Assembly (NCBI GenBank): GCA_041665145.1
Contig: JBAYJK010000001.1
Span: 293,629 to 357,628 of the forward strand
Length of the DNA: 64,000 nucleotides
Source: Patescibacteria group bacterium
GTDB lineage: Bacteria; Patescibacteriota; Microgenomatia; UBA1406
Reading direction: 5' to 3'
Shown piece by piece: positions 10,210-59,744 of this stretch. The notes below the pieces were generated by a model. The model did not search any database, had not been told where the DNA came from, and saw nothing but the letters and a program-made list of their open reading frames with translations. Positions within the stretch are counted from its first letter, which is position 1. Each line of letters opens with the position of its first letter. The position numbers and the translations under genes were made by a program.

Positions 10210-12915
10210 ATGGGATTATTTAGCAAATTCTTTAACTTTAATGAGCGGGAGCTCAATCGCTATCGGACAATTCTTGTCGAAATAAACGCGCTTGAGGAAA
10301 AAGCCAAGAAACTGAAAGATGCGGATTTTCCCAAAGAAACTGCGCGTTTGAAAGAAGAGATGGGCGGGCGGAAAGAAAAACTCGACAGTATTCTTCCGTG
10401 GGCGTTTGCACTCGTTCGGGAGGCAGCGGTCAGGGTATTGGGAGAACGCCATTTCGACGTTCAACTTATAGCGGGTATTGCGCTCCACGAAGGACGGATT
10501 GCAGAGCAAAAAACGGGTGAAGGGAAAACACTCTCTGCAACAGCACCTTTATACCTAAATGCACTGGTCGGTCGTGGTGTTCATTTGGTTACCGTAAATG
10601 ACTATCTGGCCCGGCTGCACGCAGGCTGGATGGGGCGTGTGTTCGATTTCTTGGGTATAACAACCAGCGCGATGATTTCCGAGCAGTCGTTTGTATATGA
10701 CAAGACATACCTCGACGAAAAGGCATCAGATTGGCGCATGCGTCACCTGAAGCCGACCGACAGAAGAAGCGCATATCAAGCGGACGTTACCTACGGTATT
10801 AACAGTGAATTCGGTTTTGATTTTCTCCGCGATAACATGTCTTTTTCACTCCCGGAAAAAGTTCAACGGGATTTTTATTTTGCAGTTGTCGACGAAGTTG
10901 ACTCGGTGTTAATAGATGAAGCGCGAACTCCACACATTATTTCTTCGCCGTTTGACGACGATGTGAGCCGTTATTACCAGTACGCAAAAATGGTGGATCG
11001 GTTGATGAGCGGGACGGACTATGTGATTGATGAAAAAATGCGTACGGCAAACCTCACGGAACACGGAATTGAGAAAATTGAAAAAATGCTCGGTGTCACC
11101 AATGTTTATGAAAAAGACTACGACAGCTTATACCATCTGGAAGCTTCGTTGAAAGCAAAATCACTTTTTAAATTAAACAAAGATTACATCGTTCGAAATG
11201 GGGAAGTAATAATCGTTGATGAATTTACCGGTCGACTCCTCGAAGGACGCAGGTTTTCAGAAGGTTTGCATCAGGCGATAGAAGCGAAAGAGAACGTAGC
11301 GATCAAAAAAGAATCAAAAACTCTTGCGACTATTTCCCTACAGAACTACTTCAGAAAATACGACAAGCTGGCAGGCATGACGGGTACCGCAGTTACGGAG
11401 GCTGAAGAATTTCATAAAATTTACAAGCTTGATGTGATTGTTATTCCCACAAACCGAAAGCTCGTTCGTAAAGACCATCCGGATTTTATATATAAAACCG
11501 AACGCGGAAAATTCACGGCTCTCGTGGATATTATTGCAGAAGAACATGCGAAAGGTCGCCCGATATTGGTCGGTACGACAAGTATAGACAAAAATGAAGC
11601 TCTATCTTCTCTTTTGCGCAAGAAGGGAATAAAACATGAACTGCTGAATGCGAAGAATCACGAGCGGGAAGCTCAGATTATTTCTGATGCCGGTAAAAAA
11701 GGAGCAGTAACCATTGCGACAAATATGGCCGGCCGCGGTGTTGATATTATTTTGGGAGGAAATGCGCCGAACAGAGTCAGAAGTCAGGAGTCAGGAGTTA
11801 AAAGCGCCGATAAGGAATACGAAAAGGCATACAAAGAGTGGCAAAAAGGGCACGATGAAGTAGTACAACTCGGCGGTTTGTTTGTCATGGGAACGGAACG
11901 CCATGAGTCACGCAGAATAGATAATCAGCTTCGCGGACGGGCCGGACGACAGGGTGACCCGGGCGAGACACGCTTTTTTGTCGCACTTGAAGACGACATG
12001 CTCAGAATCTTCGGTGGTGACCAAATCGGGAAACTCATGACCTTTTTTAACTTCCCGGAAAATCAGCCCATCGAACATTCAATGGTTTCGCGGGCAATGG
12101 AGCAGGCGCAAGTTAAGGTGGAAGGTTTTAACTTTGATTCGCGGAAACACCTGTTGGAATATGACGATGTGTTGAATAAGCAACGTGACATTATTTATTC
12201 TCAGCGCGACAAGATTATGGACTATGTGGCGGCACCAACAACCCAGTTTTCGGAATTCATGCAAACCCAAGTGCAAAAATTCGTGGAAGACTTTTCCATA
12301 CCTTTCACTATGGGAAAAAAAGATGAAAAAGAAGCAGTTGTTAAACTCCTGGAAGGTTTTTTTGCGATCGATGAGGAAGGTAGAAAAGCACTCCTTGAAA
12401 TGGAACCGCGGGAATTTACCGAACGTTTTGAACAAAATATCATAACGGCGCTTGCCCGAAAAGAAAAAGGATTCGGTCCCGAGTTATTCAAAGAGGCGGT
12501 ACGGACGTTATTTCTTTCGACAATAGACTATTACTTTACCGAACACTTAACAAGTATCGAAGATTTGCGCGAAGGAATTAATTTGCGCGGGTATGCACAA
12601 CTGGACCCGCTGGTTGAATATAAGAAGGAATCATACAAATTTTTTAACACAATGCTCCAGAATATCCGGACAGACTTTTTCAGAAGGTTGTTGCATTTGG
12701 AAATCGACTCCCAGCAAACTCAAAATTCAAATCTACAAATATCAAATCAAGCTCAAAAATCAAAAAACAAAAAGAATAAAATCAATCAGAACGACACTCA
12801 GACAGTCAGACAATCGGACACTCAGACGAGTACTAACAAATTAAGTCGTAATGACCCCTGTTGGTGCGGCAGTGGTAAAAAGTGGAAAAAGTGCCATTAT
12901 CCAAAATTAAGTTAG
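10210..12915 (+). CDS. secA: preprotein translocase ATPase SecA
   Basis: 901 aa with the Walker A motif QKTGEGKTL, the DEAD-like DEVDSVLIDEARTP block, TERHESRRIDNQLRGRAGRQGDPG and the C-terminal zinc motif CWCGSGKKWKKCH. A low-complexity linker before the zinc motif is built from repeat DNA (see findings). Confidence 0.95.
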   Translation: MGLFSKFFNFNERELNRYRTILVEINALEEKAKKLKDADFPKETARLKEEMGGRKEKLDSILPWAFALVREAAVRVLGERHFDVQLIAGIALHEGRIAEQKTGEGKTLSATAPLYLNALVGRGVHLVTVNDYLARLHAGWMGRVFDFLGITTSAMISEQSFVYDKTYLDEKASDWRMRHLKPTDRRSAYQADVTYGINSEFGFDFLRDNMSFSLPEKVQRDFYFAVVDEVDSVLIDEARTPHIISSPFDDDVSRYYQYAKMVDRLMSGTDYVIDEKMRTANLTEHGIEKIEKMLGVTNVYEKDYDSLYHLEASLKAKSLFKLNKDYIVRNGEVIIVDEFTGRLLEGRRFSEGLHQAIEAKENVAIKKESKTLATISLQNYFRKYDKLAGMTGTAVTEAEEFHKIYKLDVIVIPTNRKLVRKDHPDFIYKTERGKFTALVDIIAEEHAKGRPILVGTTSIDKNEALSSLLRKKGIKHELLNAKNHEREAQIISDAGKKGAVTIATNMAGRGVDIILGGNAPNRVRSQESGVKSADKEYEKAYKEWQKGHDEVVQLGGLFVMGTERHESRRIDNQLRGRAGRQGDPGETRFFVALEDDMLRIFGGDQIGKLMTFFNFPENQPIEHSMVSRAMEQAQVKVEGFNFDSRKHLLEYDDVLNKQRDIIYSQRDKIMDYVAAPTTQFSEFMQTQVQKFVEDFSIPFTMGKKDEKEAVVKLLEGFFAIDEEGRKALLEMEPREFTERFEQNIITALARKEKGFGPELFKEAVRTLFLSTIDYYFTEHLTSIEDLREGINLRGYAQLDPLVEYKKESYKFFNTMLQNIRTDFFRRLLHLEIDSQQTQNSNLQISNQAQKSKNKKNKINQNDTQTVRQSDTQTSTNKLSRNDPCWCGSGKKWKKCHYPKLS

Positions 12916-35120: not shown

Positions 35121-35621
35121 ATGCTGTATAAATTAAAAGAATTGCTGTATCAATTCATCATGTGCGGGTATTTTCGTATTCACCGGACATACCTGGGCTT
35201 ATTCGTGAAAAAGATGGGTAAAAACGTTGAAATTTGGAGGTCGGTGCACTTTATGGATCCGAAAAATATTTCCATCGGTGATAATGTCATGTTGGCGAGA
35301 AACGTCGATCTTTACGGATTCGGAGGTTTGGAAATCGGAAACCACACGGCAATCGGAGCATATTCCGCCATTATTACCCATAATCATATATTTACGGATA
35401 ACAACAAACCTATTCTGGAACAGGGTCATAAGAGGGAAAAAGTAACCATCGGCACAGATGTGTGGATCGGCACCCATGCCATAATTCTTCCGGGAGTGAC
35501 CATCGGTAATGGGGCTGTTATCGGGGCGGGGGCGGTCGTCACAAAAGACGTGCCGAAATACGCGGTGGTTGTTGGAAACCCAGGGAAGATTGTGAAATAC
35601 AGAAATTCAAAAATCAAATAA
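35121..35621 (+). CDS. hexapeptide-repeat (LbH) acetyltransferase
   Basis: [31 protein letters not shown]...[51 protein letters not shown]. Confidence 0.8.
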
Positions 35622-35724
35622 CAACCCTCAAATCAAATTCAAAGTTCAAATGACAACCTTCAAAAGGTTTTGAATTTTAGATTTGGAATTTGATTTGTCA
35701 TTTGTAGATTTGAATTTTGAATTT
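35602..35724. repeat. AT-rich inverted-repeat hairpin element, gene-less form (copy A)
   Basis: The left arm is GAAATTCAAAAATCAAATAACAA... and the right arm is ...TGATTTGTCATTTGTAGATTTGAATTTTGAATTT. The element overlaps the stop codon of the upstream gene. Confidence 0.85.
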
Positions 35725-36705: not shown

Positions 36706-36749
36706 TTATGATCATTGTGTTGTGAAGAGTAATGATGTATATTGACATC

Positions 36750-37193
36750 ATGAAATCCCGTTTAGCAGGTTTTATTGCCCTGTTTTTATGCCTTTCATTG
36801 TTGATGGTTCCTGCTGTTTTGGCAAATAACCCAGGAGTAACCAGAGTTAGGGGAAATGTCTATGATCAAGACAACGGGGGAGCGGGAATCGGTGGTCTCA
36901 CCGTCAACGTAACTTGCAACGGAAATTCACGAAACGCCACAACTGACGGCAACGGATTATATGTGGTCGACTATACCCGTTCGGAATGCCCGCAGTTTGG
37001 ACCGGTCAGTTCTGCCGTTTCGCACAACGGACAATCCCAGTCTGACACGGTATATGTATCCGACGTGTATACTGCTACGATGGACTTTTACTTCGGGACG
37101 ATAAGCGTTCCGGAATTCGGCATGATCCCGGGAGCGATTGCGGCAATTGGATCAATTGGAACATACCTGGCACTTAGGAGAAAGAGAACCTAA
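36750..37193 (+). CDS. small secreted protein with a C-terminal VPEFG-TM-RRKR sorting signal (PEF/PEFG-CTERM-like)
   Basis: Signal peptide MKSRLAGFIALFLCLSLLMVPAVLA. A carboxypeptidase-regulatory-like beta domain (RGNVYDQDN...GLTVNVTCNGNSRNATTDGNGLY). The C-terminus is ISVPEFGMIPGAIAAIGSIGTYLALRRKRT. The start is trimmed from the ORF-track 36732, with TATATT 6 nt upstream. Confidence 0.65.
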   Translation: MKSRLAGFIALFLCLSLLMVPAVLANNPGVTRVRGNVYDQDNGGAGIGGLTVNVTCNGNSRNATTDGNGLYVVDYTRSECPQFGPVSSAVSHNGQSQSDTVYVSDVYTATMDFYFGTISVPEFGMIPGAIAAIGSIGTYLALRRKRT

Positions 37194-37315
37194 ATTCAAA
37201 GCTCAAATCTACAACCTTCAAATCAAATTCAAAATTCAAATGATAACCTTCAAAAAGTTTTGAATTTTAGATTTTGAATTTGATTTGTCATTTGTCTATT
37301 TGAATTTTGAATTTT
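37192..37315. repeat. AT-rich inverted-repeat hairpin element, gene-less form (copy B)
   Basis: AAATTCAAAGCTCAAATCTACAA...TGATTTGTCATTTGTCTATTTGAATTTTGAATTT. It starts inside the upstream stop codon. Confidence 0.85.
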
Positions 37316-37340: not shown

Positions 37341-38288
37341 ATGCCTTTATTAAAGCGCTTACTCTTATTTTCTGCGCTGTTTATTGTCCTCTCCGGCCTT
37401 GTGGGTCCGTGGGTGATCAGCACCAAGCTTCTCTACGGTTTCTATTTCTTTATCTACCCGAACATGGGGAAGTTACTCATGTTTTCGTTTATCGTGTTTG
37501 TACTTCTTACAAAAGACAAGTTGAATTCAATCGGTGTCATCCCCGCGAAGGCGGGGATCCAGGAGCATCTGGATTCCCGGTCACGTATGCCGGGAATGAC
37601 AGTATCAACTATTCTTTGTTTTCTTTCCTTCGTTCTTTTGATTCCCTTCTACGTATTCGGAAACATGTTGCTCAAAGAACCTTCATTTTTCACCAATCTT
37701 CCTCTTTCTCTCTTTGTTCATTTCCTGTTAATTTCTTCTGTTTTGACTTTATTTGTTTCGGTTTTCGGATTTCGATATTCGATTTTTTTTGCAAAGCAGT
37801 TTAAACGTGAACTAGTTGTCTGTTGCCTGTTGTCTGTTATCTACTATTTCGCGATTTTTTACGTATGGCATTTCTGGCCCCTACTTTCTGACGCAGTTTT
37901 GCAGTCGGTAAAATTCCTGTTCTCCCTATCATATAAAGACGTTATGTTTATTCCTCCACGTGCATTGTACGTTCACAACTTTACGGTGAGTATTGAAGAA
38001 GCCTGTTCGGGCCTCGACAGCATGTTCTTGTTTACGACGCTGTACATACTTATTGGGATTGTTGAACGGAAAACATTCAACATTGCTAAATTGTTGCTAT
38101 TGCTACCCGTAGCGCTTGTCGGCTTATTTCTTGTGAATGTTCTGCGCGTGTATACGCTTATTCTCGTCGGTGTGCTCATAGATCCGAAGCTGACCGTACA
38201 ACTCTTTCACACGTACCTTGGTATGGTTCTCTTCATGGTCTACTTTGCCTTATTTTGGAAAATCTTTTACGGATGGATGAGGAAGTAG
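37341..38288 (+). CDS. exosortase/archaeosortase-family transpeptidase
   Basis: Polytopic protein with the family Cys/Arg/His signature blocks: SIEEACSGLDSMF, LVNVLRVYTLIL and FHTYLGMVLF. It carries an in-frame GC-rich repeat insertion (see findings). Confidence 0.7.
   Translation: MPLLKRLLLFSALFIVLSGLVGPWVISTKLLYGFYFFIYPNMGKLLMFSFIVFVLLTKDKLNSIGVIPAKAGIQEHLDSRSRMPGMTVSTILCFLSFVLLIPFYVFGNMLLKEPSFFTNLPLSLFVHFLLISSVLTLFVSVFGFRYSIFFAKQFKRELVVCCLLSVIYYFAIFYVWHFWPLLSDAVLQSVKFLFSLSYKDVMFIPPRALYVHNFTVSIEEACSGLDSMFLFTTLYILIGIVERKTFNIAKLLLLLPVALVGLFLVNVLRVYTLILVGVLIDPKLTVQLFHTYLGMVLFMVYFALFWKIFYGWMRK
37536..37601. repeat. GC-rich triple-hairpin palindromic element (copy 1), in frame inside the exosortase CDS
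   Basis: GTCAT-CCCCGCGAAGGCGGGG-ATCCAGGAGCATCTGGAT-TCCCGGTCACGTATGCCGGGA-ATGAC, translated as VIPAKAGIQEHLDSRSRMPGMT. Confidence 0.8.
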
Positions 38289-38912: not shown

Positions 38913-38917
38913 GTGCA

Positions 38918-39394
38918 GAAATTCAAAGATCAAATCTACAACCCTCAATTGAAATTCAAATGACAACCTTCAATTGAAATCTAAAATTCAAAATACAAAG
39001 AATTATTTCTTGTTAATGGCGCCGAATATGAGAGAGAGTTCTTTGGCTTCCTGAAGGAGCCTAGTAATTAAAGCACGTTGTGTTTCATCTGCAAACTCGA
39101 TCATTCGCAACCAATGGATAGTTTCCTTCGCCTCTTTTTTGCAAATACCAATCTTTGCATGGAAATCTTTTTTGGAGTCGGCACCGTTGGCTTCCATATA
39201 GTTGGCTCCGACACTTGTTGCAGATCTTATTATTTGCGAGATTAGTGGAACAGTAATTATTGTTTTTCTGATGCTGTTGCACAACGAAATTATTTGAGTG
39301 CCAAATAGGGTAGTTCGCACCTCAAGGTCGTATATTTTTTCTCCATTTGAATTTTGAATTTGATTTGTCATTTGTAGATTTGAAGGTTGAATTT
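38918..39394. repeat. 477-bp inverted-repeat-bounded unit enclosing a four-helix-bundle gene (long form, copy 1)
   Basis: 85-nt left arm, a minus-strand ORF at 39003..39371, and a 23-nt right arm. The termini are AAATTCAAAGATCAAATCTACAA on the left and, as reverse complement, AAATTCAACCTTCAAATCTACAA on the right. Confidence 0.75.
39003..39371 (-). CDS. four-helix-bundle protein (23S rRNA intervening-sequence protein family)
   Basis: 122 aa with LISQIIRSATSVGANYMEANGADSKKDFHAKIGICKKEAKETIHWLRMI, which matches the TIGR02436/PF05635-type pattern (R.A.S...N..EA......DF..K...A.KE..ET..WL). Confidence 0.8.
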   Translation of the reverse strand: MTNQIQNSNGEKIYDLEVRTTLFGTQIISLCNSIRKTIITVPLISQIIRSATSVGANYMEANGADSKKDFHAKIGICKKEAKETIHWLRMIEFADETQRALITRLLQEAKELSLIFGAINKK

Positions 39395-39470
39395 ATTATC
39401 CACCTCATGTTTATCAAATACCACGGTTTATAGGCATCATCTACGCCCAAAGTACTGTATAATGTATCAC

Positions 39471-40022
39471 ATGATTCGTCCCTTATTTAGACTCGCCAAG
39501 CGCTTGCACAGTGACTCTTTGTACAGAAATTCGTTGAGTGTTGTTAATAAGCTTAAGAATATAAAATTTCTTCCGTACATTTTGCATACCCAACTGATCC
39601 GGAGTCAGTTTAAAAGAATGGGAAAAAACTTTCTTGCAGAAGGCCATTTTGGGTACACAAAACCTAAACAAATCGAGATCGGTGATAATGTATATTTCAA
39701 TCACGATGTTCTATTAATAGTACATGGCAGTGCGTCAATAAAAATAGGAAATGATGTTTTAATAGGCCCATACTCATATATTTTTACAAAAATGCATGGG
39801 TATTACACACGGAGAATTCCAATAAGAAGTCAAAAGGAAACATTTAAATCTATAGTTATAGAGGATGGTGTCTGGTTGGGTGCAAATGTTATCGTGATGC
39901 CCGGAGTAACGATTCACAAGGGGGCTATTGTTGGAGCCGGTGCTGTCGTGACAAAGGATGTAAAATCGTACACAATTGTTGGTGGGATACCTGCAAAATT
40001 TATCAGAGACAGGCCCGCTTAA
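39471..40022 (+). CDS. hexapeptide-repeat acetyltransferase with a flippase-derived N-terminal segment
   Basis: LbH core IEIGDNVYFNHDVLLIVHGSASIKIGNDVLIG...[40 protein letters not shown] 39471 is preceded by TATAAT 7 nt upstream. The N-terminal LAKRLHSDSLYRNS is shared with the next flippase gene. Confidence 0.7.
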   Translation: MIRPLFRLAKRLHSDSLYRNSLSVVNKLKNIKFLPYILHTQLIRSQFKRMGKNFLAEGHFGYTKPKQIEIGDNVYFNHDVLLIVHGSASIKIGNDVLIGPYSYIFTKMHGYYTRRIPIRSQKETFKSIVIEDGVWLGANVIVMPGVTIHKGAIVGAGAVVTKDVKSYTIVGGIPAKFIRDRPA

Positions 40023-40178
40023 TTAGTCTTACATTAAAAAGAAGGTTATGTTAAACAAGTTATCAAGCGGTTTGTCTGTCATTATGCGCTATAATATGTG
40101 CTAAACTTAACAGTTTCCTGGTATTTTCAGCAATCTAGCAATTGTCATGTATCAATATAGCAATCTAACAATTTAACA

Positions 40179-41432
40179 ATGATAAAATCTATTTACCACC
40201 TCGCGAAGCGCTTGCACTCCGACTCTTTGTATCGAAATTCGTTTTACTTAATGGCCAGCACGTTCGCCATGGCCTTTTTCGGGTTCTTTTTTTGGATAAT
40301 AAACGCCCGTCTGTATAAACCGGAATCCGTGGGAATAACCACATCTCTTATCTCCGTTATATCATTATTATCCACAGTAAGCTTATTCGGCTTTAATAAC
40401 GGCATTGTGAGCTACTTGCCGAAAGAGAAAGACAAAAACCACATGATTAACACCATGTTTACGTTTACGGGCGTAGCAGGTGTGGTTATCTCTATTGTGT
40501 TTCTCTTGGGGCTTTCGTTTTTTGCTCCCAAGTTATTATTTATTCGTGCGAACCCGCTATTTATTGCCGGGTTTATTGTGCTGGTGGTTTTGAGTGTGTG
40601 GAACATTATGACGGATTCGGCGTTTCTGGCATTCCGGTCTACGCAGTACACATTTCTTGCAAACCTTATCAGTAGTTTCGCTAAGCTTGTAGCGCCATTC
40701 TTTTTTATAAGCCTCGGTGGGGCAGGAATATTTGCGGCATATGTAACATACCTAACGTTGTCTACCGGCATCAGCTTTTTGCTTATGTTCATTCGCCTGG
40801 GATACAAACCAAAAATGGATGTGGACAAAAAAATTATCCGTCAGACGGCAAAGTTTTCGTTTATGAATTACCTGGCTGGAACTATCGGCATGCTTCCAAC
40901 GCTAATTATCCCTATCTGGATTCTTAACAGACTAGGTGCCAAAGAAGCTGCGTATTACTATATGGCATCCATGATAATGGCTTTGCTTGGTATTATCCCG
41001 AGCGGAATAACCCGCTCGCTTTTTGCAGAGGGTTCGCATAATCAAAAGCATATGAAAGCACTGATCAAAAAGGCCGTAATTGGGGTGGTTGTTTTAGTGA
41101 TTCCAGCAATTATCATTACAATTATATTTGGTGGAACAGTTCTTACTTTGTTTGGAGAAAGCTACTCTGAGGAGGGTTTCAGGCTTTTGCAGTTGATGGC
41201 AGCATCTCTTTTATTTACTTCAACCAATCACATTCTCGGTTCTATTTTTAACATCAGGAAGGAAACAGGCACTATATTAGGAATGACGGTATTTGGAGCA
41301 ATTACAATATTGCTATTAATTAACAGCTTGATTAACCTTAAGCTTAACGGAGTGGGTTTTGCTTGGCTTATCAGTCAAATGATTACAGCTTTCGTATTTC
41401 TTATTATCTTCTTCCTAAAAAAACATGATTAA
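40179..41432 (+). CDS. Wzx-like polysaccharide flippase (MOP superfamily)
   Basis: 417 aa with about 12 TM segments and the typical N-terminus LAKRLHSDSLYRNSFYLMASTFAMAFFGFFFWII. Confidence 0.65.
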   Translation: MIKSIYHLAKRLHSDSLYRNSFYLMASTFAMAFFGFFFWIINARLYKPESVGITTSLISVISLLSTVSLFGFNNGIVSYLPKEKDKNHMINTMFTFTGVAGVVISIVFLLGLSFFAPKLLFIRANPLFIAGFIVLVVLSVWNIMTDSAFLAFRSTQYTFLANLISSFAKLVAPFFFISLGGAGIFAAYVTYLTLSTGISFLLMFIRLGYKPKMDVDKKIIRQTAKFSFMNYLAGTIGMLPTLIIPIWILNRLGAKEAAYYYMASMIMALLGIIPSGITRSLFAEGSHNQKHMKALIKKAVIGVVVLVIPAIIITIIFGGTVLTLFGESYSEEGFRLLQLMAASLLFTSTNHILGSIFNIRKETGTILGMTVFGAITILLLINSLINLKLNGVGFAWLISQMITAFVFLIIFFLKKHD

Positions 41433-42333
41433 AACAATAGGGGTCATCATATGTAACCAAAACGGTTTTACAGACACTGCCAAATGCATCGAATCTATAA
41501 AAACAATCAGATCTGCCAAACTTGACATACTAGTTATTGATAATGGCTCCGAAATGTCAGATTTTAAGAAAATTCAGGAAATTAAAGACATCTCAGTAAT
41601 AAGAAATGAAAAAAACTACGGTTATGCTAGAGGAAATAATCAAGGGATATTGTATTTCTTAAATAAGTCAGAGAAACCCGGATACATTTTACTATTGAAT
41701 AACGACGCTTTTTGTGAAGAAGATTTTTTGTTTCCGCTGCTTAAAATTTTAGATAAATCTAGAAGAGTAGGTGCTGTCAATCCACTGATTTATTATGCAA
41801 AAGAACGAAACAGAATCTGGTCTTCGGGAGGAAAATTAAACATGGAATCCGGGTCAATATCATCAGATTATATGTTTCATAACCCTAGTGTAAGTATCAA
41901 AGAGCCGTATTTAGTTGATTTTGTTTCTGGTTGTGCCTGTTTAGTTAGAACTGAAATTTTCCAGGAAGTTGGGTTGTTAGAAGAGTCATACGAGATGTAT
42001 GTAGAAGATGTCGAATTTAGTCTAAGAGTTAGAAATCACGGATGGGTGTGTATGGTTGAACCGAGATGCAAGATTTATCATAAAGTTAGTGCTTCCAGTG
42101 GGGGAACTGCGAGCTTTAAAAAGAGATACTATATTTCAAGAAACACAATGTTTTTAGCTAAGACATATTTCGAGGAACCACGGTTGTTTATCCAAAGATA
42201 TTTGTTAGGCCAGATCTTAGGTTTACACAACTATCCCATAGCCTCTATTCCCTTTCTGTTGTTTGCCACTTTAATAGGTTCAATTAATGGATTAATCTTG
42301 AGTGGTAAAAGAAAGATGAAGCATGAAATTTAA
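41425..42333 (+). CDS. GT2-family glycosyltransferase
   Basis: GVIICNQN...LVIDNGS...LLLNNDA...VEDVEFSLR (DxD and ED motifs). Confidence 0.7.
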   Translation: MIKTIGVIICNQNGFTDTAKCIESIKTIRSAKLDILVIDNGSEMSDFKKIQEIKDISVIRNEKNYGYARGNNQGILYFLNKSEKPGYILLLNNDAFCEEDFLFPLLKILDKSRRVGAVNPLIYYAKERNRIWSSGGKLNMESGSISSDYMFHNPSVSIKEPYLVDFVSGCACLVRTEIFQEVGLLEESYEMYVEDVEFSLRVRNHGWVCMVEPRCKIYHKVSASSGGTASFKKRYYISRNTMFLAKTYFEEPRLFIQRYLLGQILGLHNYPIASIPFLLFATLIGSINGLILSGKRKMKHEI

Positions 42334-42868
42334 TAAATACTATTTTAGAGAGTGTCTTTGTGAGTATTTGTGTAACGAAATAGTTTCAAACATCCCTTCA
42401 CATTTGTTTAGGATTTTTTTCTATAAGAAAGTTGCAGGAATTAAAGTAGGTAAAGAAAGCAGTATTGCTATGCATGTAAAATTCAGAAGTCCCTGGAAAA
42501 TAATAATCGAAGACAATTGTGCAATTAATCAAGACTGTTACCTAGATGGGAGGGGCGGTCTTATTATAGGGAAGAATGTGAATATTAGCAGAGGCACATC
42601 GATTCACACAGCTACTCATAATTACAACTCAAAAGACTTTCGTTACGTAGAAAAAGGTGTCGTTCTTGAAAAGGACGTATGGGTTGCCAGTAATTGTATA
42701 ATTCTCCCTGGGATTACTTTAGAAAAAGGCAGTGTTGTTGGAGCTGGTTCTGTAGTTACGAAAACAGTAGAAAAGTATACTGTAGTGGCTGGGAATCCAG
42801 CGAGAGAGAGGAAGAAACGCAATAGTAAACTTAACTACAAAACGAACTATTTTAGGTTGCTTAGTTGA
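42323..42868 (+). CDS. hexapeptide-repeat acetyltransferase
   Basis: IIEDNCAINQDCYLDGRGGLIIGKNVNISRG...VLEKDVWVASNCIILPGITLEKGSVVGAGSVVTKTV. Confidence 0.75.
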   Translation: MKFNKYYFRECLCEYLCNEIVSNIPSHLFRIFFYKKVAGIKVGKESSIAMHVKFRSPWKIIIEDNCAINQDCYLDGRGGLIIGKNVNISRGTSIHTATHNYNSKDFRYVEKGVVLEKDVWVASNCIILPGITLEKGSVVGAGSVVTKTVEKYTVVAGNPARERKKRNSKLNYKTNYFRLLS

Positions 42869-42886
42869 TTGAATAAAAGAGTGAGT

Positions 42887-43963
42887 TCAATCGAGACTAT
42901 TGTAAACAAGTTGTGTTTTTGTTGCTGCTTCTTGCCAGCTAATTGATTGAGCATATTTAAGAGCTTGTCTTCCCTTGCTTCCTAAATTCTTCCTGTCTTT
43001 ATAAACACTCACTAATGTGTTAAGTAGGTTTTTTGAATTTTGAGGATTATAAAAAAAAGTGAAATCGTCAGGAAACTCAACCAGATCACCTAGTTGTGGA
43101 CAAATAATCGGCTTGCCAAATGATAATGCGAGCAGTGCGCTACCGCTTGTTGTAATTTTTCTAAATGGCAACACAACCACATTAGCTGCATTCATATATA
43201 CTTGGACCTTGTCATCAGGGACAAAGCCTATATGGATATCAATGCTCTTCTCGTTAATTGACTGCAAAGATTTTTTAATACTAGGATCGCTAGCATTTCC
43301 AGCAATTAATAATCGTGTTCCTTTAATATTAGCTTTATTAAATAAGTTAATGAGCAAATCGACGCCCTTGTATTTTTCTATTCTTCCGAAGAATAAGTAC
43401 ACAAATTCATCTTTTGGTATATGTAATAGTCTTCTAGATACAATTTGCGAAACCGTGTTAGTGTAAAAATTTACATAATTACCATGAGGAACGATATAAC
43501 TATTCTTGGTAATAAAATGCAATTTTTTTATGCGTTCCAAAGTTGCATCAGAATTGAGAATTTGAGCGCTGCTCATAAAAAAAATAATTTTTGAGATATA
43601 CAGATCGTTTAAAAATATTTTCTCATGTGAGGTTAAATCGTGCATGGTCCAAACTATTCTATAGCCAAGTATTTTTAATATGACTAATATGCTGAGAAAA
43701 TATGCGGTATAGAGCAAACGGAAAAAAAAACTATGAAAAAATGCCTGTTTAAATGGAAATTGAAATGGATACAACCAATGGATATGAAAGATTCCGAATC
43801 CAGACAATTTATACTTGAACAACATTAGTGGTAGTAATAATAAGTTGACTGAATGGGACTTAGTCGGACCTACTAGATATCTGATAGTGAATTTCTTTGC
43901 TAATTCTTGGTAGAGTAGTCTCTGATAAGGATTATTATCTTGTGGGTAAACAAGTATTTTCAT
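42887..43963 (-). CDS. GT4-family glycosyltransferase
   Basis: FFGRIEKYKGVDLLI...VVLPFRKITTSGSALLALSFGKPIICPQLGDL, a GT4-like C-terminal domain. Confidence 0.6.
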   Translation of the reverse strand: MKILVYPQDNNPYQRLLYQELAKKFTIRYLVGPTKSHSVNLLLLPLMLFKYKLSGFGIFHIHWLYPFQFPFKQAFFHSFFFRLLYTAYFLSILVILKILGYRIVWTMHDLTSHEKIFLNDLYISKIIFFMSSAQILNSDATLERIKKLHFITKNSYIVPHGNYVNFYTNTVSQIVSRRLLHIPKDEFVYLFFGRIEKYKGVDLLINLFNKANIKGTRLLIAGNASDPSIKKSLQSINEKSIDIHIGFVPDDKVQVYMNAANVVVLPFRKITTSGSALLALSFGKPIICPQLGDLVEFPDDFTFFYNPQNSKNLLNTLVSVYKDRKNLGSKGRQALKYAQSISWQEAATKTQLVYNSLD

Positions 43964-44835
43964 GAATTAGTGATCAACTCTTTTAAAACACCAAGACCAT
44001 AAACTAAATGATCAACTGTTACTTGAATAGGTTTGCTTGAGCGGTTCTTTATCAAGGGGATTAATAAAAGTAATGGATATATTGGAATTATGATGGTAAT
44101 TGGCAGTCCAATTATAAATATCGGATAGATTACTGCAGTTATGTCGCGTGTAAAAAGATATTTAAGACGATGTCTATATGTTTTATATAACTTAGCCCGT
44201 GCAGCTCCATAAATGAACGATCTTTTTAAGTCGCTTTTCCAATCTCCCCAATTATGATAAATAACTGCATTCGGTTGATATCGTATTTTGTAACCCTTAT
44301 CTACTACACGCCAGCTAAAGCCGACATCTTCACCATAACCAAATAACTCGTTGAAATACCCGATTTCTTTTATCAGGTTTTTCTTAAAAGCTAAATTGAT
44401 CGTTGGGCATTCATTAAGGTACCTTGCTGACTTGTTTCTTTCAGCAACTTGGTCATGGAGTGTTGGTCGGTTCTTTGATAAGGCTTTACCGGCAACATAG
44501 ACTTCGCCCTCGTGCAGAAGTGGCTCAACAAGGTTGACGAGCCACTTCTTGTCGGGTATACAACCAGAATCTATAAAGACAATAATGTTTCCCTTTGCTT
44601 GAGTTATGCCTAAATTCCTTTGTTCAGGAATGGTTGGCTTGTTCTTTTTTATTTTATAGAAATACCATTTTACTTTGGGATATTTGGTTTTTATTTGTAG
44701 CAATCTACCTTTTTCCGAAGAATCAACGACTATTATTTCCGATTTAAAAGGGTTCTCAATTTGCGTGAGTCCTTTTAAAGTAGAATCAAGTTCCGGGTCG
44801 TTTTTAACAATAATAATTATTGAAAGAAAAATCAT
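43960..44835 (-). CDS. GT2-family glycosyltransferase
   Basis: LSIIIIVKND...IVVDSSE...FIDSGCIPD...GEDVGFSWR, followed by a C-terminal TM region. The start overlaps the upstream stop. Confidence 0.7.
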   Translation of the reverse strand: MIFLSIIIIVKNDPELDSTLKGLTQIENPFKSEIIVVDSSEKGRLLQIKTKYPKVKWYFYKIKKNKPTIPEQRNLGITQAKGNIIVFIDSGCIPDKKWLVNLVEPLLHEGEVYVAGKALSKNRPTLHDQVAERNKSARYLNECPTINLAFKKNLIKEIGYFNELFGYGEDVGFSWRVVDKGYKIRYQPNAVIYHNWGDWKSDLKRSFIYGAARAKLYKTYRHRLKYLFTRDITAVIYPIFIIGLPITIIIPIYPLLLLIPLIKNRSSKPIQVTVDHLVYGLGVLKELITNS

Positions 44836-50861: not shown

Positions 50862-50873
50862 ATTATTTTTTAT

Positions 50874-50989
50874 AAATTCAAAGCTCAAATGACAACCTTC
50901 AATTGAAATTCAAAATTCAAGCTTCAAAATAGTTTTGAATTTTAGATTTTGAATTTGATTTGTCATTTGTATATTTGATTTTTGAATTT
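50874..50989. repeat. AT-rich inverted-repeat hairpin element, gene-less form (copy F; coordinates +/-2)
   Basis: AAATTCAAAGCTCAAATGACAACCTTCAATTGAAATTCAAAATTCAAGC...TGATTTGTCATTTGTATATTTGATTTTTGAATTT. It abuts the stop codon of 50990..51445. Confidence 0.8.
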
Positions 50990-51445
50990 TTATTCTTTCA
51001 CTCCATTCAGCCAGAAGTGTATCGTTTGTTTTTTATTAACCAGGTTTACCTCCACTTTTACCCGATCATGGTTTTCACCAATAGAGTAGGTTATTTTTTT
51101 GGTTATGTACGCGTCATGTATAAGCACAAACGTGCCGGTTTGCAAAACCTGTTGGTAACCGTCCGCGCCAGTTGCTTTAACCGTATACGGGTATTCCATG
51201 TCAGTGTATTCTAGGTTATGTACGGTAAATTTGAACGTTTGTTCTTCTTCCGGGATTATTCGGGTAGGTAATTTAAGGTGGTCTTCAAAATAAAGCTCCG
51301 TAAACGTTTCGGGTAAGGGAACCAATTTCCAGACTTTTAGCTGTTCATAGATGGCGTCCTGCTTGACATAGAGCGCCACAGCAAACATTGTGATGAATAT
51401 AAACGTCAGAATTAACACCAGTTTTTGTAACCACGGTTTTACCAT
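50990..51445 (-). CDS. membrane-anchored hypothetical protein
   Basis: The start is trimmed to MVKPWLQKLVLILTFIFITMFAVALYV (N-terminal TM anchor), followed by a beta-rich ectodomain. No family recognised. Confidence 0.4.
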   Translation of the reverse strand: MVKPWLQKLVLILTFIFITMFAVALYVKQDAIYEQLKVWKLVPLPETFTELYFEDHLKLPTRIIPEEEQTFKFTVHNLEYTDMEYPYTVKATGADGYQQVLQTGTFVLIHDAYITKKITYSIGENHDRVKVEVNLVNKKQTIHFWLNGVKE

Positions 51446-51514
51446 AAGGCAGGATTTGTAACTTACAGCACAATTATACTGGAAATAGCCTAGAATTAGC
51501 AAGCGAACAAGGGT

Positions 51515-51694
51515 AAATTCAAAGCTCAAATGACAACCTTCAATTGAAATTCAAAATCTGAATGTCACCCCCGGAACAAAGTACCGGGGATCCAGATTCC
51601 ATCCCTGGATTCCCGACTGGATCGGGAATGACACCTTTTGGAGTTTTGAATTTTGAGTTTCATTTGTAGATTTGTCCATTTGAATTTTGAATTT
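51515..51694. repeat. composite repeat: AT-rich hairpin element (copy G) with a GC-rich triple-hairpin element nested at its centre (51563..51633)
   Basis: AAATTCAAAGCTCAAATGACAACCTTCAATTGAAATTCAAAATCTGAA [TGTCACCCCCGGAACAAAGTACCGGGGATCCAGATTCCATCCCTGGATTCCCGACTGGATCGGGAATGACA] CCTTTTGGAGTTTTGAATTTTGAGTTTCATTTGTAGATTTGTCCATTTGAATTTTGAATTT. Confidence 0.8.
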
Positions 51695-51717: not shown

Positions 51718-53274
51718 ATGTCTCCAAACCGTTCCAATAAAAAACTTCTCTTCTTCCTCATTTTCGCCACCATAGTTTTGGGAGTAACCAACGTGTATTT
51801 GTTTGTGGACCGGTATGTTACGGCTAAAAACGAAGCTGTTCGAAAGGAAAACGAGCGCAAAGCGATTCTCGAAGGCATGTCTGCTGTGCCGACACAGGTA
51901 ACTGTGGATTTGTCCAAAAAAACCGTCACTGGCTCTCCTTTGATCTTCGGAGGTTCCAGTTTTCCAGACCAATTACACACTGGAGTAATGGATAAACTGA
52001 AAGCTGTTGGTGTAACGAATATTCGAAAGGACTTTTTTTTGGAATACACCTCTCCAGCTGGAATAACCTTGGACAGCTATAGAAGAAACGATAACAATAT
52101 TCAAGATATAGCCAATTGGAGGACAAAAGATATTGGTTGGGCGAATACGAATTTCGTGTCAGCCAAAAGTCGAGGAATGAAGATGATGGGAATAGTAACG
52201 TATGCTCCAAAATGGCTGACACATTCAGGTAATGAGCATGGAGTTCCAAAAGATTGGGGAGTATATGAGGATATTGTAAAAAAACTATATAAGCACTATA
52301 GAGACAATTTGGATTATCTTGAAATGTGGAATGAGCCAACATACAAATATTTTTTGGATCCAGCGGGTAGCGGGTTAACTCGGGAAGAGGCGTATCTACA
52401 AATATTTCTGCATGCATCTAAAGCTATTCGAGAAGTAGATAGTGAGATAAATGATGGAAAGAAAATTCCCGTTGGTGGTTTTGTAGCTCACACTCCCACG
52501 GAAACAGGATTGCTTGAATACCTTATGCAAAACGAAGAATTTAGAAAGTCTATTAATTTTATCAGCTACCACAATTACGAACATGTGCCGGAACCATCAT
52601 GGACGGCATACAAAACGATACTTGCAAAATACGGAATGCAAAATTTACCTGTTTTTTTGACGGAATGGAATTATTCTCCAGGCTTTAAAGAATACAATTC
52701 CAAACTAGTCGGTGATGAAGCAGTAACGTACACAGGAGATAAACTAACTAGCTTTTTGAACATGGGCCTTGCCGGGGCAAACTATTTTGCCCTTATTGCA
52801 GAAGATGCCAAATTTACCACACCATGGAGCGGATACTTGGCTTTTTATAAATGGGAAAATGGGAAAGCGACATTACTTCCTCAAGCAAAAACGTGGAGGC
52901 TGATGAGTGTTAGCCTTGCTCTCGGGAAAGGGAAAAGCCAAGTATATGAGACAAGCTATAAAGACAAAGAAATTAACGCTGCCGGGTTTACAAACGTAAA
53001 GGGCCAAAAAGGTACGGTGCTCGTGAACAAGGGAACCACTGGCAAATTGGTAAACGTTTCTTTTAAAAACTTAGGTGCCCCGAAACATGTAATTATCGAA
53101 GAATTTATTGCCGATCCCGATCATGACGGAGGGACTGCAGTGCGGAAAGAGTACGTGGATGAACCCGGAGAAGCGTTGAACTTTACCATGTATGTGCCGG
53201 CGCAGAGCGTGGTTGGTGTTTTGTTGTCGGATACAAGTAAGATGCAGGAAATACTCAAGCTATTCTTCAAATAG
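51718..53274 (+). CDS. membrane-anchored clan GH-A glycoside hydrolase-like protein
   Basis: N-terminal TM anchor. LEMWNEPTY (NEP acid/base-type motif) and VFLTEWNYS (TEW nucleophile-type motif), as in GH5/GH39-like TIM-barrel enzymes. Confidence 0.5.
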   Translation: MSPNRSNKKLLFFLIFATIVLGVTNVYLFVDRYVTAKNEAVRKENERKAILEGMSAVPTQVTVDLSKKTVTGSPLIFGGSSFPDQLHTGVMDKLKAVGVTNIRKDFFLEYTSPAGITLDSYRRNDNNIQDIANWRTKDIGWANTNFVSAKSRGMKMMGIVTYAPKWLTHSGNEHGVPKDWGVYEDIVKKLYKHYRDNLDYLEMWNEPTYKYFLDPAGSGLTREEAYLQIFLHASKAIREVDSEINDGKKIPVGGFVAHTPTETGLLEYLMQNEEFRKSINFISYHNYEHVPEPSWTAYKTILAKYGMQNLPVFLTEWNYSPGFKEYNSKLVGDEAVTYTGDKLTSFLNMGLAGANYFALIAEDAKFTTPWSGYLAFYKWENGKATLLPQAKTWRLMSVSLALGKGKSQVYETSYKDKEINAAGFTNVKGQKGTVLVNKGTTGKLVNVSFKNLGAPKHVIIEEFIADPDHDGGTAVRKEYVDEPGEALNFTMYVPAQSVVGVLLSDTSKMQEILKLFFK

Positions 53275-53750
53275 AAATTCAAAATTCAAATCTACAACCC
53301 TCAATTGAAATTCAAATGACAGCCTTCAATTGAAATCTAAAATTCAAAATTCAAAGAATCATTTCTTGTTAATGGCACCGAAAATGAGTGAAAGTTCTTT
53401 GGCTTCCTGAAGAAGCTTCAGAATAAACGATTTCTGAGTTCCGTCGGCAAATTCAATCATTCGCAACCAATGAATTGTTTCTTTCGACTCTTTTTTGCAG
53501 ATACTTATTTTTGCATGGAAATCTTTTTTTGAATCGGCGCCATTAGCTTCCATGTAATTGGCGCCCACACTTGTTGCAGATCTGATAATCTGCGAAATCA
53601 ACGGTGCAGTGACAATAGTTTTCTTTACATTGTTACAAAGAGTGATTACTTGAGTACCGAATACGCTTGTCCGTTCTTCCAGATCGTATATTTTCTCTCC
53701 ATTTGAATTTTGTGCTTGATTTGTCATTTGTAGATTTGAAGGTTGAGTTT
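53274..53750. repeat. 477-bp inverted-repeat-bounded unit enclosing a four-helix-bundle gene (long form, copy 2)
   Basis: It has the same length and layout as 38918..39394. The left arms match at 81 of 85 nt and the right arms at 22 of 23 nt by hand alignment. Confidence 0.75.
53359..53727 (-). CDS. four-helix-bundle protein (23S rRNA intervening-sequence protein family), paralog
   Basis: 122 aa. It differs from the 39003..39371 product at about 19 positions and shares the SQIIRSATSVGANYMEANGADSKKDFHAKI...KETIHWLRMIEFAD core. Confidence 0.8.
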   Translation of the reverse strand: MTNQAQNSNGEKIYDLEERTSVFGTQVITLCNNVKKTIVTAPLISQIIRSATSVGANYMEANGADSKKDFHAKISICKKESKETIHWLRMIEFADGTQKSFILKLLQEAKELSLIFGAINKK

Positions 53751-54720: not shown

Positions 54721-54777
54721 CATAAAAAGTTGTCCATATTTGATTTCTTATCTGCAGTGCGTTATAATAGTCCGTAT

Positions 54778-55680: not shown

Positions 55681-55785
55681 AATTCAAAGCTCAAATGACA
55701 ACCTTCAATTGAAATTCAAAGTTCAAATTTTAAATATTTAGATTTTGAATTTGATTTGTCATTTGTAGATTTGAATTTTGAATTT
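55679..55785. repeat. AT-rich inverted-repeat hairpin element, gene-less form (copy I)
   Basis: AAAATTCAAAGCTCAAATGACAACCTTCAATTGAAATTCAAAGTTCAAATTTTAAATATTTAGATTTTGAATTTGATTTGTCATTTGTAGATTTGAATTTTGAATTT. It overlaps the upstream stop codon. Confidence 0.85.
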
Positions 55786-59460: not shown

Positions 59461-59744
59461 AAATTCAAAATTCAAATGACAACCCTCAAGTGAAATTCAA
59501 AATTCGAATCTACAACCCTCAATTCAAATTCAAAGCTCAAACATCATTCCCGCACAAGTGATGTCATTCCCGCGTAGGCGGGAATCCAGGAACTTTGTAT
59601 CTGGATCCCCGGTATTTGTATTCCGGGGATGACAAACATATCTAGATTGCCGCGCTTCATCCCGCTGAGCGGGACTTCGCTCGCAATGACGCCTTTTGAA
59701 TTTTGAATTTGATTTGTCATTTGTCTATTTGAATTTTGAGTTTT
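59461..59744. repeat. composite repeat: AT-rich hairpin element (copy J) with nested GC-rich elements (59541..59693)
   Basis: The arms are AAATTCAAAATTCAAATGACAACCCTCAAG... and ...TTTTGAATTTTGAATTTGATTTGTCATTTGTCTATTTGAATTTTGAGTTTT. The centre holds a triple-hairpin copy at 59563..59633 plus a second GC-rich palindrome (TTGCCGCGCTTCATCCCGCTGAGCGGGACTTCGCTCGCAATGAC). Confidence 0.8.

Follow-up and report, generated by a model that had tools for sequence, protein, structure and literature searches.

The intervening sequences (IVSs) of bacterial rRNA genes can encode a protein of the four-helix-bundle (4HB) family, which has thousands of members and is represented by the solved structures 2RLD and 2GSC; short IVSs without an open reading frame (ORF) exist as well. 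What the IVS-encoded protein does and where the rRNA IVSs come from are questions that date from about 1990. In the 23S rRNA IVS of Coxiella, RNase III cleaves inside the inverted-repeat stem, and the ATG is preceded by two or three copies of the heptad GACAGAT and one of GACAGAA, the number varying by strain (PMC4990558). The proteins of this family are homopentamers, and the verdict of the same study was that the IVS protein is probably not made (PMC4990558). Genes of the family, PF05635, have also been found intercalated in cas operons (PMC3936711), and the family is homologous to Avd, a protein of diversity-generating retroelements (DGRs) (PMC10053308).

Here, we analyze a 477-bp unit that contains a 4HB gene and lies in a 64-kb stretch of DNA from a member of the Patescibacteria (hereafter, the window). 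A preliminary description of this unit offered two readings, namely, a small mobile unit bounded by terminal inverted repeats (TIRs) or an IVS-like RNA-processing module that had escaped from rRNA, and considered neither to be an established concept. The first of these ideas is not new: Ralph and McClelland proposed in 1993 that the IVS is a mobile element with an ORF that serves its mobility, an idea that was never established (PMC4990558). A full-text literature search for the heptad sequences or for repeat-flanked, free-standing 4HB genes found nothing.

Results

The gene and its product

The ORF enclosed in the unit (Table 1) matches PF05635 (E = 7e-15; 55.6 bits, cut-off 33.8), TIGR02436 (E = 6e-20; 71.6 bits, cut-off 24) and the PDB structure 2RLD (5e-10, or 1e-18 with a profile). 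On the strength of these matches, the 122-aa protein is assigned to the PF05635/TIGR02436 family of 4HB (23S rRNA IVS) proteins, in agreement with the preliminary description. The residues R49, S53, N57 and E60 of the motif RxxxSxxxNxxE, which is conserved in the PF05635 family (PMC3936711), are all present: IIRSATSVGANYMEA. Family-profile matching detected no nuclease or recombinase domain in this helical bundle. The gene lacks a Shine-Dalgarno sequence, as do all 41 of the 41 genes checked, so that this absence is uninformative.

Table 1. Coordinates of the 4HB units, hairpins and arm-like sequences in the 64-kb window
Feature	Coordinates	Strand	Remarks
4HB gene, copy 1	39003..39371	-	122 aa, pI 9.2; matches PF05635, TIGR02436, 2RLD
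3' arm, copy 1 (previously the 85-nt "left arm")	38917..39002	-	array of ~7-nt A-rich repeats; homology with copy 2 begins here
5' arm, copy 1	39345..39394	-	23 nt upstream of ATG, ATG and first ~9 codons (MTNQIQNSN)
Gene-bearing copy 2	53273..53750	-	3' arm 53273-53358, ORF 53359-53727, 5' arm to 53750
ORF-less hairpin	35602..35724	-	-40 kcal/mol; contains stop codon of upstream gene
ORF-less hairpin	37192..37315	-	-39 kcal/mol; first bases finish TAA stop of gene 36732-37193
ORF-less hairpin	50874..50989	-	abuts stop codon of gene 50990-51529 (-)
ORF-less hairpin	55681..55785	-	immediately past stop codon of gene 54730-55680
ORF-less hairpin, larger loop	62656..62788	-	
Half copy, single arm	51515..51555		beside a copy of a second, GC-rich repeat
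Half copy, arm repeats only	59468..59534		beside a copy of the second, GC-rich repeat
Degenerate arm-like stretch	12716..12775	+	in frame in secA, between the SecA_SW domain and the SEC-C motif

Ends, arms and folding of the unit

Alignment of the unit (38918-39394; copy 1) with the second gene-bearing copy in the window (copy 2) shows that homology begins and ends exactly at the ends of the arms; the free-standing 477-bp unit recognized earlier is thus real. Its 23-nt ends are inverted repeats with 20 of 23 positions identical between the left 23-mer and the reverse complement of 39372-39394, the left one starting at 38919, one nucleotide later than the previously assigned 38918. The inverted repeat continues past these ends to a length of 42 nt, at 79% complementarity, and enters the beginning of the coding sequence. 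The ATG, together with the 8-9 codons at the start of the ORF, is itself repeat sequence, as had been noticed, and recurs in every ORF-less copy (see below). Within the 3' arm, positions 38938-38987 form a 25-nt tandem duplication, and the 5' arm is nearly invariant across all seven complete window copies. Both arms are built of ~7-nt repeats (lag-7 autocorrelation 0.58, against 0.36 in shuffled sequences; z = 12.9); this heptad structure and the dispersal of the arms as a hairpin family had been overlooked in the preliminary description. When the whole unit is folded as RNA or as DNA, the long-range stem between the arms closes in the MFE structure as well as in the centroid, with z-scores of -1.8 for copy 1 RNA, -3.9 for copy 2 RNA and -2.5 for copy 1 DNA.

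Surroundings

No rRNA was detected in the 64-kb window, where Rfam yielded a single tRNA at the gathering thresholds and nothing above chance at E values up to 1. The neighbors of copy 1 are those originally reported, a gene for a sorting-signal protein, whose PEF-CTERM-like tail was judged by eye (NCBIfam gave no match), and a gene for a WcaF/WbbJ-like hexapeptide acetyltransferase; the reported shift in composition is also apparent, with the GC content falling immediately to the right of the unit from about 0.40-0.46 to 0.32-0.39. Both gene-bearing copies are antisense to the neighboring genes. No intrinsic terminators were found, and promoter-like sites occur at the chance level.

A family of hairpins in the window

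The 23-nt ends, proposed as a probe for further copies, proved productive within the window, with 10 occurrences at up to three mismatches where 0.00 are expected. In a metagenome scan, a 24-nt arm pattern hit 18 stretches, all of them from other organisms and none syntenic with the window, and no close relative of the window genome came up. Besides the two gene-bearing copies, the window contains at least five ORF-less hairpins with the same arms, and all nine window copies share one orientation. The ORF-less hairpins are AT-rich, near-perfect structures of 105-133 nt (-33 to -40 kcal/mol), situated in the short spaces between genes and directly next to stop codons. Their palindromes are more perfect than those of the gene-bearing copies and contain extra modules. 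Compensatory changes among the seven complete copies give a mixed picture, with fixed differences between the 5' and 3' arms instead of clean covariation, and identical conserved mismatches between the two arms recur from copy to copy.

Between the two gene-bearing copies, the parts have diverged to different degrees: the arms are 95-96% identical, the ORFs 78% and the flanks 31-34%. In the two ORFs, the synonymous sites have reached saturation (pS = 0.72), with a dN/dS of 0.036. By these estimates, the two window ORFs are anciently diverged and not recent duplicates, and the 4HB protein is under strong purifying selection. The likeness of the arms far exceeds that of the synonymous sites of the ORFs.

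The same layout in related loci

We compared the unit with loci of the same 4HB clade in 80 species-representative genomes from Patescibacteria and other phyla. The flanks score higher as inverted than as direct repeats in 64 of the 69 clade loci, and higher as direct repeats in the other 5. One related locus, L124, has arrays that are direct rather than inverted. The two arms of a unit match each other better than they match the arms of other units (36.7 versus 28.9; reached in 0 of 2000 permutations), and variants of the arm sequence co-vary between the two sides. Heptad periodicity is present as well, with a lag-7 autocorrelation of 0.49 in the 5' arm and 0.48 in the 3' arm against 0.26 in controls. 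The RNA duplex energies of the flanks are shifted but noisy (median z = -3.3), and in other genomes the complementarity of the arms is just ~76% across ~50 nt. Among arm mismatches on the sense strand, there are 133 G-U and 164 A-C pairs; in the absence of a G-U excess, sense RNA is not singled out as the paired form.

The arms and the ORF are AT-shifted relative to the host genomes. Other genomes, too, have ORF-less hairpins whose arms are of the local variant (for example, at L013 and L063), and an additional arm-like site lies near only 8 of the 69 clade loci. The 4HB gene is co-directional with its upstream neighbor in 56 of 62 cases and with its downstream neighbor in 52 of 61. No neighboring gene is conserved around it across 79 loci. 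None of 88 related loci is located in rRNA, and no rRNA motifs were found within 3 kb of them. A search of 2.9 million viral contigs detected no relatives.

For three CPR-clade units, 11, 23 and 10 population contigs show no presence/absence difference, in a look-up that covers gene-carrying contigs only and would thus miss empty sites. A breakpoint in the P0039 population lies at a tRNA gene and not at the unit.

Among more distant family members, those of Bacteroides occur in the arrangements araD-4HB-araA and aminotransferase-4HB-DAHP synthase; inverted (AATTGAC)4-5 arrays are present in both, and strains differ in array length by three heptads. In Xanthomonas, Dyella and Dokdonella, the 4HB gene is flanked by inverted (GGGAATN)4 arrays and sits between accB and accC, genes that are adjacent in most bacteria; the start codon lies within the array, the stem closes in the MFE structure, and the insertion site is orthologous and fixed over these three genera of Xanthomonadales. 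Most of the distant 4HB genes with heptad arrays are co-directional with, and placed between, genes of ordinary operons. The heptad sequence is specific to each lineage, and in every lineage the array includes the start codon.

Discussion

Weighing the explanations

The suggestion that the unit is mobile, in the form of a DNA transposon family in which the gene-bearing unit is autonomous, the 4HB protein moves it via its arms, by itself or together with enzymes of the host, and the ORF-less hairpins are MITE-like, non-autonomous derivatives, revives the 1993 idea of Ralph and McClelland. Terminal inverted repeats and multiple dispersed copies, as in TIR transposons and MITEs, are indeed found: at least nine sharp-ended copies are scattered over 64 kb, all in one orientation, and the ORF-less ones bear the local arm variant. 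The contexts differ over 79 genomes with no partner gene, the clade extends over several phyla with arms and ORFs AT-shifted against their hosts, and a unit has inserted between accB and accC. The dispersed copies, the varied contexts and the AT shift lend weak support to the first of the two earlier readings, and other observations speak against it. There are no target-site duplications in the flanks of the seven complete window copies. No transposase partner appears, the 4HB gene being the only ORF of the unit and no partner gene being conserved over 79 loci, and no nuclease or recombinase domain is recognized in the 122-aa helical bundle. The gene-bearing copies are old by their synonymous divergence, and the ORF-less copies, with their better palindromes and extra modules, are not simple deletion derivatives of them. 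The accB-accC site has stayed fixed in three genera, the gene-carrying population contigs of three units do not vary in presence, and the search of viral contigs gave no relatives. A transposon family in this sense is unlikely.

If the hairpins instead serve the host as intergenic repeats comparable to REP, ERIC or Correia elements (as stabilizers of mRNA 3' ends, terminators or nucleoid sites), the 4HB genes would be their passengers, either inserted into hairpins or captured by them. The position of the hairpins in short gaps against stop codons, their numerical excess over the gene-bearing copies and the homogenization of the arms within a genome independently of the ORFs all fit. Such a role is nevertheless improbable: the ORF is paired with inverted heptads in CPR, Bacteroides and Xanthomonadales with few or no ORF-less copies nearby, the start codon is part of the array in every lineage, and no features of intrinsic terminators were found. 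Quite improbable, too, is that the arrays are double-stranded DNA operators or iterons, their symmetry being that of paired binding sites and not of a stem, with the 4HB protein binding DNA as an autoregulator or nucleoid protein. This explanation would account for the conservation of the arms as sequence, above all the nearly invariant 5' arm, for the recurring mismatches, for imperfect complementarity with wobble pairs that show no strand bias, and for the basic character of the protein. Against it stand the near-perfect ORF-less hairpins of the window and the demonstration that the stem of the rRNA IVS is an RNA substrate (PMC4990558); furthermore, by our reasoning, a 7-bp period would place successive sites on different faces of the duplex.

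On balance, we lean towards regarding the unit as a cassette of the type represented by the ORF-bearing IVSs, here in free-standing form, and not as a classical TIR transposon. By analogy with the IVSs, it likely acts mainly as an RNA stem that is likely a substrate of RNase III. Because the same layout is found in very different bacteria and matches that of the rRNA IVSs, the ORF-bearing rRNA IVSs look like one special case of a wider, undescribed cassette. The second earlier reading, the IVS-like module, agrees with the architecture, a stem with a 4HB gene in the loop, a start codon in or next to tandem repeats and the same layout in Bacteroides and Xanthomonadales, but the direction implied by an escape from rRNA finds no support: given that none of the 88 related loci is in rRNA and that, in the rRNA genes of CPR, no more than 22 insertion-borne PF05635 ORFs were counted in a survey (PMC11270868), rRNA looks like one insertion site among many.

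In the cassette model, the transcribed arms would form an imperfect duplex, ~40 bp or longer, open to cleavage by RNase III, so that the insert would be removed from the host transcript, or insulate it, as experiments have demonstrated for the rRNA IVSs. The basic, pentamer-forming 4HB protein would probably bind the heptads that flank its own gene as well as those in the ORF-less copies, and four or five heptads per arm, as in Bacteroides and Xanthomonadales, would fit five subunits. Binding would govern formation of the stem, translation of the 4HB gene itself or maintenance of the element. Arrival at new sites would be rare, and the arms would be kept alike within a genome by concerted evolution and repeat slippage. 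A more far-reaching version appears to us doubtful: that PF05635 pentamers are sequence-specific in binding the heptad arrays next to their own genes, and that protein and inverted arrays constitute a self-contained, hitherto unnoticed class of transposase-less cassette, which has spread over many bacterial phyla into operon spacers and rRNA helices, spawning ORF-less hairpins, with the classical IVSs as its rRNA-resident members.

Several observations run counter to the IVS-like reading. The gene-bearing copies in the window, unlike ~90% of the related loci, are antisense to their neighbors and accordingly would not lie in sense within host transcripts. There is also the lack of a G-U excess, the imperfection of the arms, the direct arrays at L124, the five loci with higher scores as direct repeats and the judgment that the Coxiella protein is probably not made. 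Furthermore, given that the heptads differ by lineage, recognition between protein and array would have to co-evolve.

Implications

Should inverted heptad arrays invariably accompany the gene, within rRNA as well as elsewhere, the IVSs would be the rRNA-resident members of a general cassette, and the arrays would be an obvious candidate ligand of the pentamer. Insertions in essential operons (accB-4HB-accC, araD-4HB-araA, cas) may then process or regulate the transcripts. For annotation, a practical rule would be to treat the dispersed A-rich hairpins of Patescibacteria, odd N-termini such as MTNQIQNSN and in-frame inserts of the secA type as repeat sequence.

Comparison with known systems

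TRAP-type ring proteins wrap RNA that carries evenly spaced short repeats, and the 4HB units resemble them by analogy only, in combining an oligomeric ring with a short-repeat array that overlaps the coding start; the fold is unrelated. Avd of the DGRs, in contrast, shares a homologous four-helix-bundle fold and is basic, pentameric and nucleic acid-binding. Unlike Avd, the unit adjoins genes for a sorting-signal protein and an acetyltransferase, with neither a reverse transcriptase nor template and variable repeats, and HMMER produced no Avd match to this 4HB clade.

The ORF-less copies are similar to the Correia (CREE/NEMIS, Neisseria) and ERIC elements, ~100-150-nt hairpins that are bounded by inverted repeats, dispersed intergenically and have no known cognate transposase. 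They differ in their unrelated sequence and in the heptad substructure of the arms; Correia elements are associated with TA duplications, which are absent at the window copies, and we know of no Correia or ERIC member with a protein gene in the loop. Binding and cleavage of Correia elements by RNase III, with effects on nearby genes, are documented (PMC2649163). With REP/BIME sequences and their RAYT (Y1) proteins, the common feature is the dispersed extragenic palindrome; REPs are GC-rich, 20-40 nt long and tagged with GTAG or CGTC (PMC3733652), whereas the hairpins described here are AT-rich, far longer (105-133 nt) and built of heptads. Across 79 loci, the units have no linked Y1 gene; at one related unit, a Y1_Tnp gene ~2 kb away is variably present (L004-L007 versus L003).

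The closest parallel is with the rRNA IVSs, those in the 23S and 16S genes of Leptospira, Coxiella, Brucella and Haemophilus and the insertions in CPR rRNA. The unit differs from these in its location between protein-coding genes and antisense to them, outside any rRNA gene, in that excision by RNase III is demonstrated for the IVSs and is here only predicted, and in arms that also form a dispersed family of ORF-less repeats. The likeness, on the other hand, covers the whole architecture: a PF05635 ORF in the loop, terminal inverted repeats that form a stem around the insert, a similar size (477 bp here, 428 nt in Coxiella), a division into ORF-less hairpins and ORF-bearing units and, going by the published description of Coxiella, heptads in variable number immediately before or around the ATG.

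A probable IVS-type unit outside rRNA

The 477-bp unit at 38918-39394 (copy 1) is most likely a free-standing cassette of the type known from rRNA intervening sequences (IVSs), in which arms, that is, inverted flanking repeats, enclose a gene for a four-helix-bundle (4HB) protein. The assignment of its ORF to the 23S-IVS 4HB family, originally made from the sequence alone, is borne out by scores of 55.6 bits against PF05635 (cut-off 33.8) and 71.6 bits against TIGR02436 (cut-off 24) and by a structural-database match to PDB 2RLD. The outer 23 nt of the two arms repeat each other in inverted orientation, with 20 of 23 positions the same, and the left 23-mer begins at 38919; with up to 3 mismatches, this 23-mer occurs 10 times in the window and never in 100 shuffles. 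Arm complementarity extends into the first codons (42 nt, 79%). Alignment with a second gene-bearing unit (copy 2) sets the borders of the unit: flanking sequence shows 31-34% identity, the arms 95-96% and the ORF 78%. A long-range stem between the arms closes in the minimum-energy and centroid structures, for both copies as RNA and, in the single DNA fold, for copy 1.

The surroundings of copy 1 likewise agree with the preliminary description. Across the window, Rfam detects one tRNA and no rRNA. The unit lies between a sorting-signal side, with an exosortase/archaeosortase-family gene and two small proteins bearing VPEFG...RKK tails, and a hexapeptide acetyltransferase gene to its right, and GC content drops directly right of the unit. 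This low-GC stretch (39400-50900; 0.32-0.39 vs 0.40-0.46 outside) contains many glycosyltransferase genes and is bounded by copy 1 and, at the far end, by a hairpin copy lacking the 4HB gene together with copy 2. Copies 1 and 2 share the same orientation, and the glycosyltransferase island might be swapped by recombination between the repeats. Across the window, a Shine-Dalgarno-like motif precedes none of 41 gene starts, and in several genes a box resembling TATAAT or TATACT lies 6-12 nt upstream of the ATG, which suggests that leaderless or SD-independent initiation is widespread in this organism.

Features of the window (coordinates within the window)
Feature	Position	Strand	Remarks
Copy 1, gene-bearing unit	38918-39394		477 bp
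4HB ORF, copy 1	39003-39371	minus	122 aa
Copy 2, gene-bearing unit	53274-53750		
Exosortase/archaeosortase-family gene	37341-38288		neighbourhood of copy 1
ORF-less copy	35602-35724		
ORF-less copy	37192-37315		
ORF-less copy	50874-50989		at far end of low-GC stretch
ORF-less copy	55681-55785		
ORF-less copy	62656-62788		
GC-rich repeat	37553-37578		in frame within exosortase-family ORF
GC-rich repeat	51586-51614		adjoins half copy of A-rich arm
GC-rich repeat	59580-59610		adjoins half copy of A-rich arm

A dispersed family of hairpins

Beside the gene-bearing units, the window contains two half copies and five complete ORF-less copies, hairpins of 105-133 nt with the same arms and predicted energies of -33 to -40 kcal/mol. 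The 5' arm (~49 nt, including ATGACAAATCAAATTCAAAAT) is nearly invariant in all complete copies, whereas the 3' arm has a modular make-up. As palindromes the ORF-less copies are more perfect, and they are not simple deletion products. Complete copies occupy short intergenic gaps, overlapping or adjoining stop codons, and comparison of their flanks in the window reveals no target-site duplication. In all nine arm-bearing elements, spread over 35.6-62.8 kb, the 4HB-sense strand is the minus strand regardless of how flanking genes are oriented; across the window, GC skew is positive for the most part. Were the orientation biased with respect to replication, this would hint at a single-strand DNA step; nine elements are too small a sample to judge.

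Each ORF-less hairpin retains an ATG that opens a micro-ORF of 10-23 codons, read by hand, beginning with MTNQIQ or MTNQIP (for example, MTNQIQNLKFKTF); these are probably by-products. Within secA (10210-12915), a degenerate A-rich arm-like repeat (12716-12775) is translated in frame as a linker from the SecA_SW domain to the C-terminal SEC-C motif, and a 4HB locus from another genome (L068, ~position 2600) has a similar in-frame stretch, SSNVKAQMSNEIQNPNDQN, within a coding region. The window also holds another palindromic repeat, which is GC-rich: GGGAATCCAG...CTGGATCCCC, within a longer GTCATTCCCGC... unit, occurs 3 times vs 0 expected.

Synonymous sites of the two window ORFs are saturated (pS 0.72), so that copies 1 and 2 are not recent duplicates, and a dN/dS of 0.036 implies a functional protein. 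Despite this saturation, the non-coding arms are 95% identical, much more conserved than neutral sites. The two 4HB genes are old and the arms either young or constrained; arm likeness within the genome is maintained through conversion with the many hairpin copies, selection on sequence, or both.

Related loci in other genomes

An identical protein is recorded from a Patescibacteria contig, and homologues with ~60% identity retain the N-terminus M(T/S)NQxQN(S/P)N. From this clade we sampled 80 loci in species-representative genomes, which comprise Patescibacteria and MAGs carrying the labels Dehalococcoidia, Nitrospirae, Brocadiales and Thermodesulfobacteriota. At 64 of 69 loci, the 5' flank is more similar to the 3' flank in reverse complement than in direct orientation. 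Arms match better within units (36.7) than between units (28.9), the observed mean being attained in 0 of 2000 permutations, and distinct arm variants appear on both sides together. A 7-nt period is present in both arms (lag-7 autocorrelation 0.49 and 0.48 vs 0.26 in control DNA), as it is in the window arms (0.58 vs 0.36, z = 12.9). GC content is 28% in arms, 38% in ORFs and 46% in hosts, and the AT shift persists where the host exceeds 50% GC. Other genomes, too, contain ORF-less hairpins that carry the local arm variant. No rRNA signature lies within 3 kb of any of 88 related loci, and no neighbour gene is common to more than a few clade loci. In raw counts, the 4HB gene is usually co-directional with its neighbours, the upstream one at 56 of 62 loci and the downstream one at 52 of 61.

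At L124 (1150-1760), and also at L113 and L121, the 4HB gene is flanked on either side by arm sequence repeated in tandem as a 32-nt unit (CAAATAACAAATGACAAATCAAATTCAAAATT). These arrays are in direct orientation, and the gene then begins with a short N-terminus, MNKFDLEERT. Among population contigs, a Y1_Tnp gene (IS200/IS605- or RAYT-type; ~5620-6340) lies ~2 kb downstream of a 4HB unit in L004-L007 and is absent from L003, whose 3' arm differs from that of L007 by one 13-nt sub-repeat. In L100-L104, two different upstream neighbourhoods are divided by a population-level breakpoint ~125 nt ahead of the 4HB gene; the breakpoint falls at a tRNA gene beside the unit and not at the unit itself.

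Sequences of 2RLD and 2GSC led to more distant loci in Bacteroides and Xanthomonadales, respectively. In Bacteroides, the 4HB gene lies between araD and araA or, at another locus, between aminotransferase and DAHP synthase genes, flanked by inverted arrays in which AATTGAC is repeated four to five times; the difference between strains amounts to exactly three heptads. In Xanthomonas, Dyella and Dokdonella (L136-L147), it sits in the acetyl-CoA carboxylase operon, between accB and accC. Here the flanks are inverted (GGGAATN)4 arrays, the start codon falls within the 5' array, yielding the N-termini MGNRES or MENRES, and the minimum-energy fold contains the closed arm stem. XCC0516, a protein of solved structure (2GSC) and no assigned function, is the product of this inserted gene, and the insertion is conserved across the three genera. 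Heptad sequence is lineage-specific; the 7-nt period, inverted symmetry and start codon in the array recur in all lineages examined. The inverted-heptad layout is a property of the 4HB protein family and not of the window genome alone.

Origin and possible function of the cassette

The preliminary description had offered two readings. The IVS-like architecture of an RNA module stands; its supposed escape from rRNA finds no support. Most copies are free-standing, and among rRNA insertions of CPR bacteria a survey counted only 22 PF05635 ORFs (PMC11270868). A mobile unit bounded by terminal inverted repeats fits in part, given the dispersed copies in the window, the unrelated contexts of related loci and the insertions into operons whose genes normally adjoin. 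Ongoing transposition, however, is at odds with the absence of target-site duplications, a 4HB protein without a catalytic domain, the long-ago divergence of the two window ORFs, populations without polymorphism at the units (among contigs carrying the 4HB gene) and the orthologous accB-accC site in three Xanthomonadales genera. The absence of the clade from the viral contigs searched counts against it too. New insertions must have occurred, but rarely.

For the IVS-type cassette, we envisage that the arms would pair in the transcript into a long imperfect duplex; in rRNA, such an arm duplex is a proven RNase III substrate (PMC4990558). If an operon transcript were cleaved in this way, the 4HB cistron would be released and the cistrons on either side would be separated or insulated. 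Members of the protein family assemble into homopentamers (PMC4990558), and the family shares homology with Avd (PMC10053308). Together with the basic pI (9.2) of the copy 1 protein, the four or five heptads per arm in Bacteroides and Xanthomonadales and the conservation of the arms, these properties make the heptad arrays the obvious candidate for what the pentamer binds, much as some ring proteins wrap RNA that carries repeats. The arrays may instead act at the DNA level, as operators or iterons, and several observations weigh against a view confined to RNA: wobble pairs show no strand bias, arm complementarity in other genomes is modest, copies 1 and 2 are both antisense to their neighbours, and at L124 the arrays are in direct orientation.

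Annotations routinely include free-standing 'four helix bundle protein' genes, and rRNA IVSs belong to textbook knowledge. Full-text searches of a limited collection, heptad strings included, found no description of free-standing 4HB copies with IVS-like inverted heptad arrays, of ORF-less hairpin families sharing 4HB arms, or of the conserved accB-4HB-accC and araD-4HB-araA insertions. The cassette reaches beyond one locus in that it makes the old question of IVS protein function directly testable. A published parallel is the 23S IVS of Coxiella, in which inverted repeats form a stem cut by RNase III, the 4HB ORF occupies the loop, and two or three GACAGAT heptads plus one GACAGAA, in numbers that differ among strains, directly precede the ATG (PMC4990558). 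By this published description, the Coxiella IVS and the free-standing units have in common the stem, the 4HB ORF in its loop and the heptads at the ATG.
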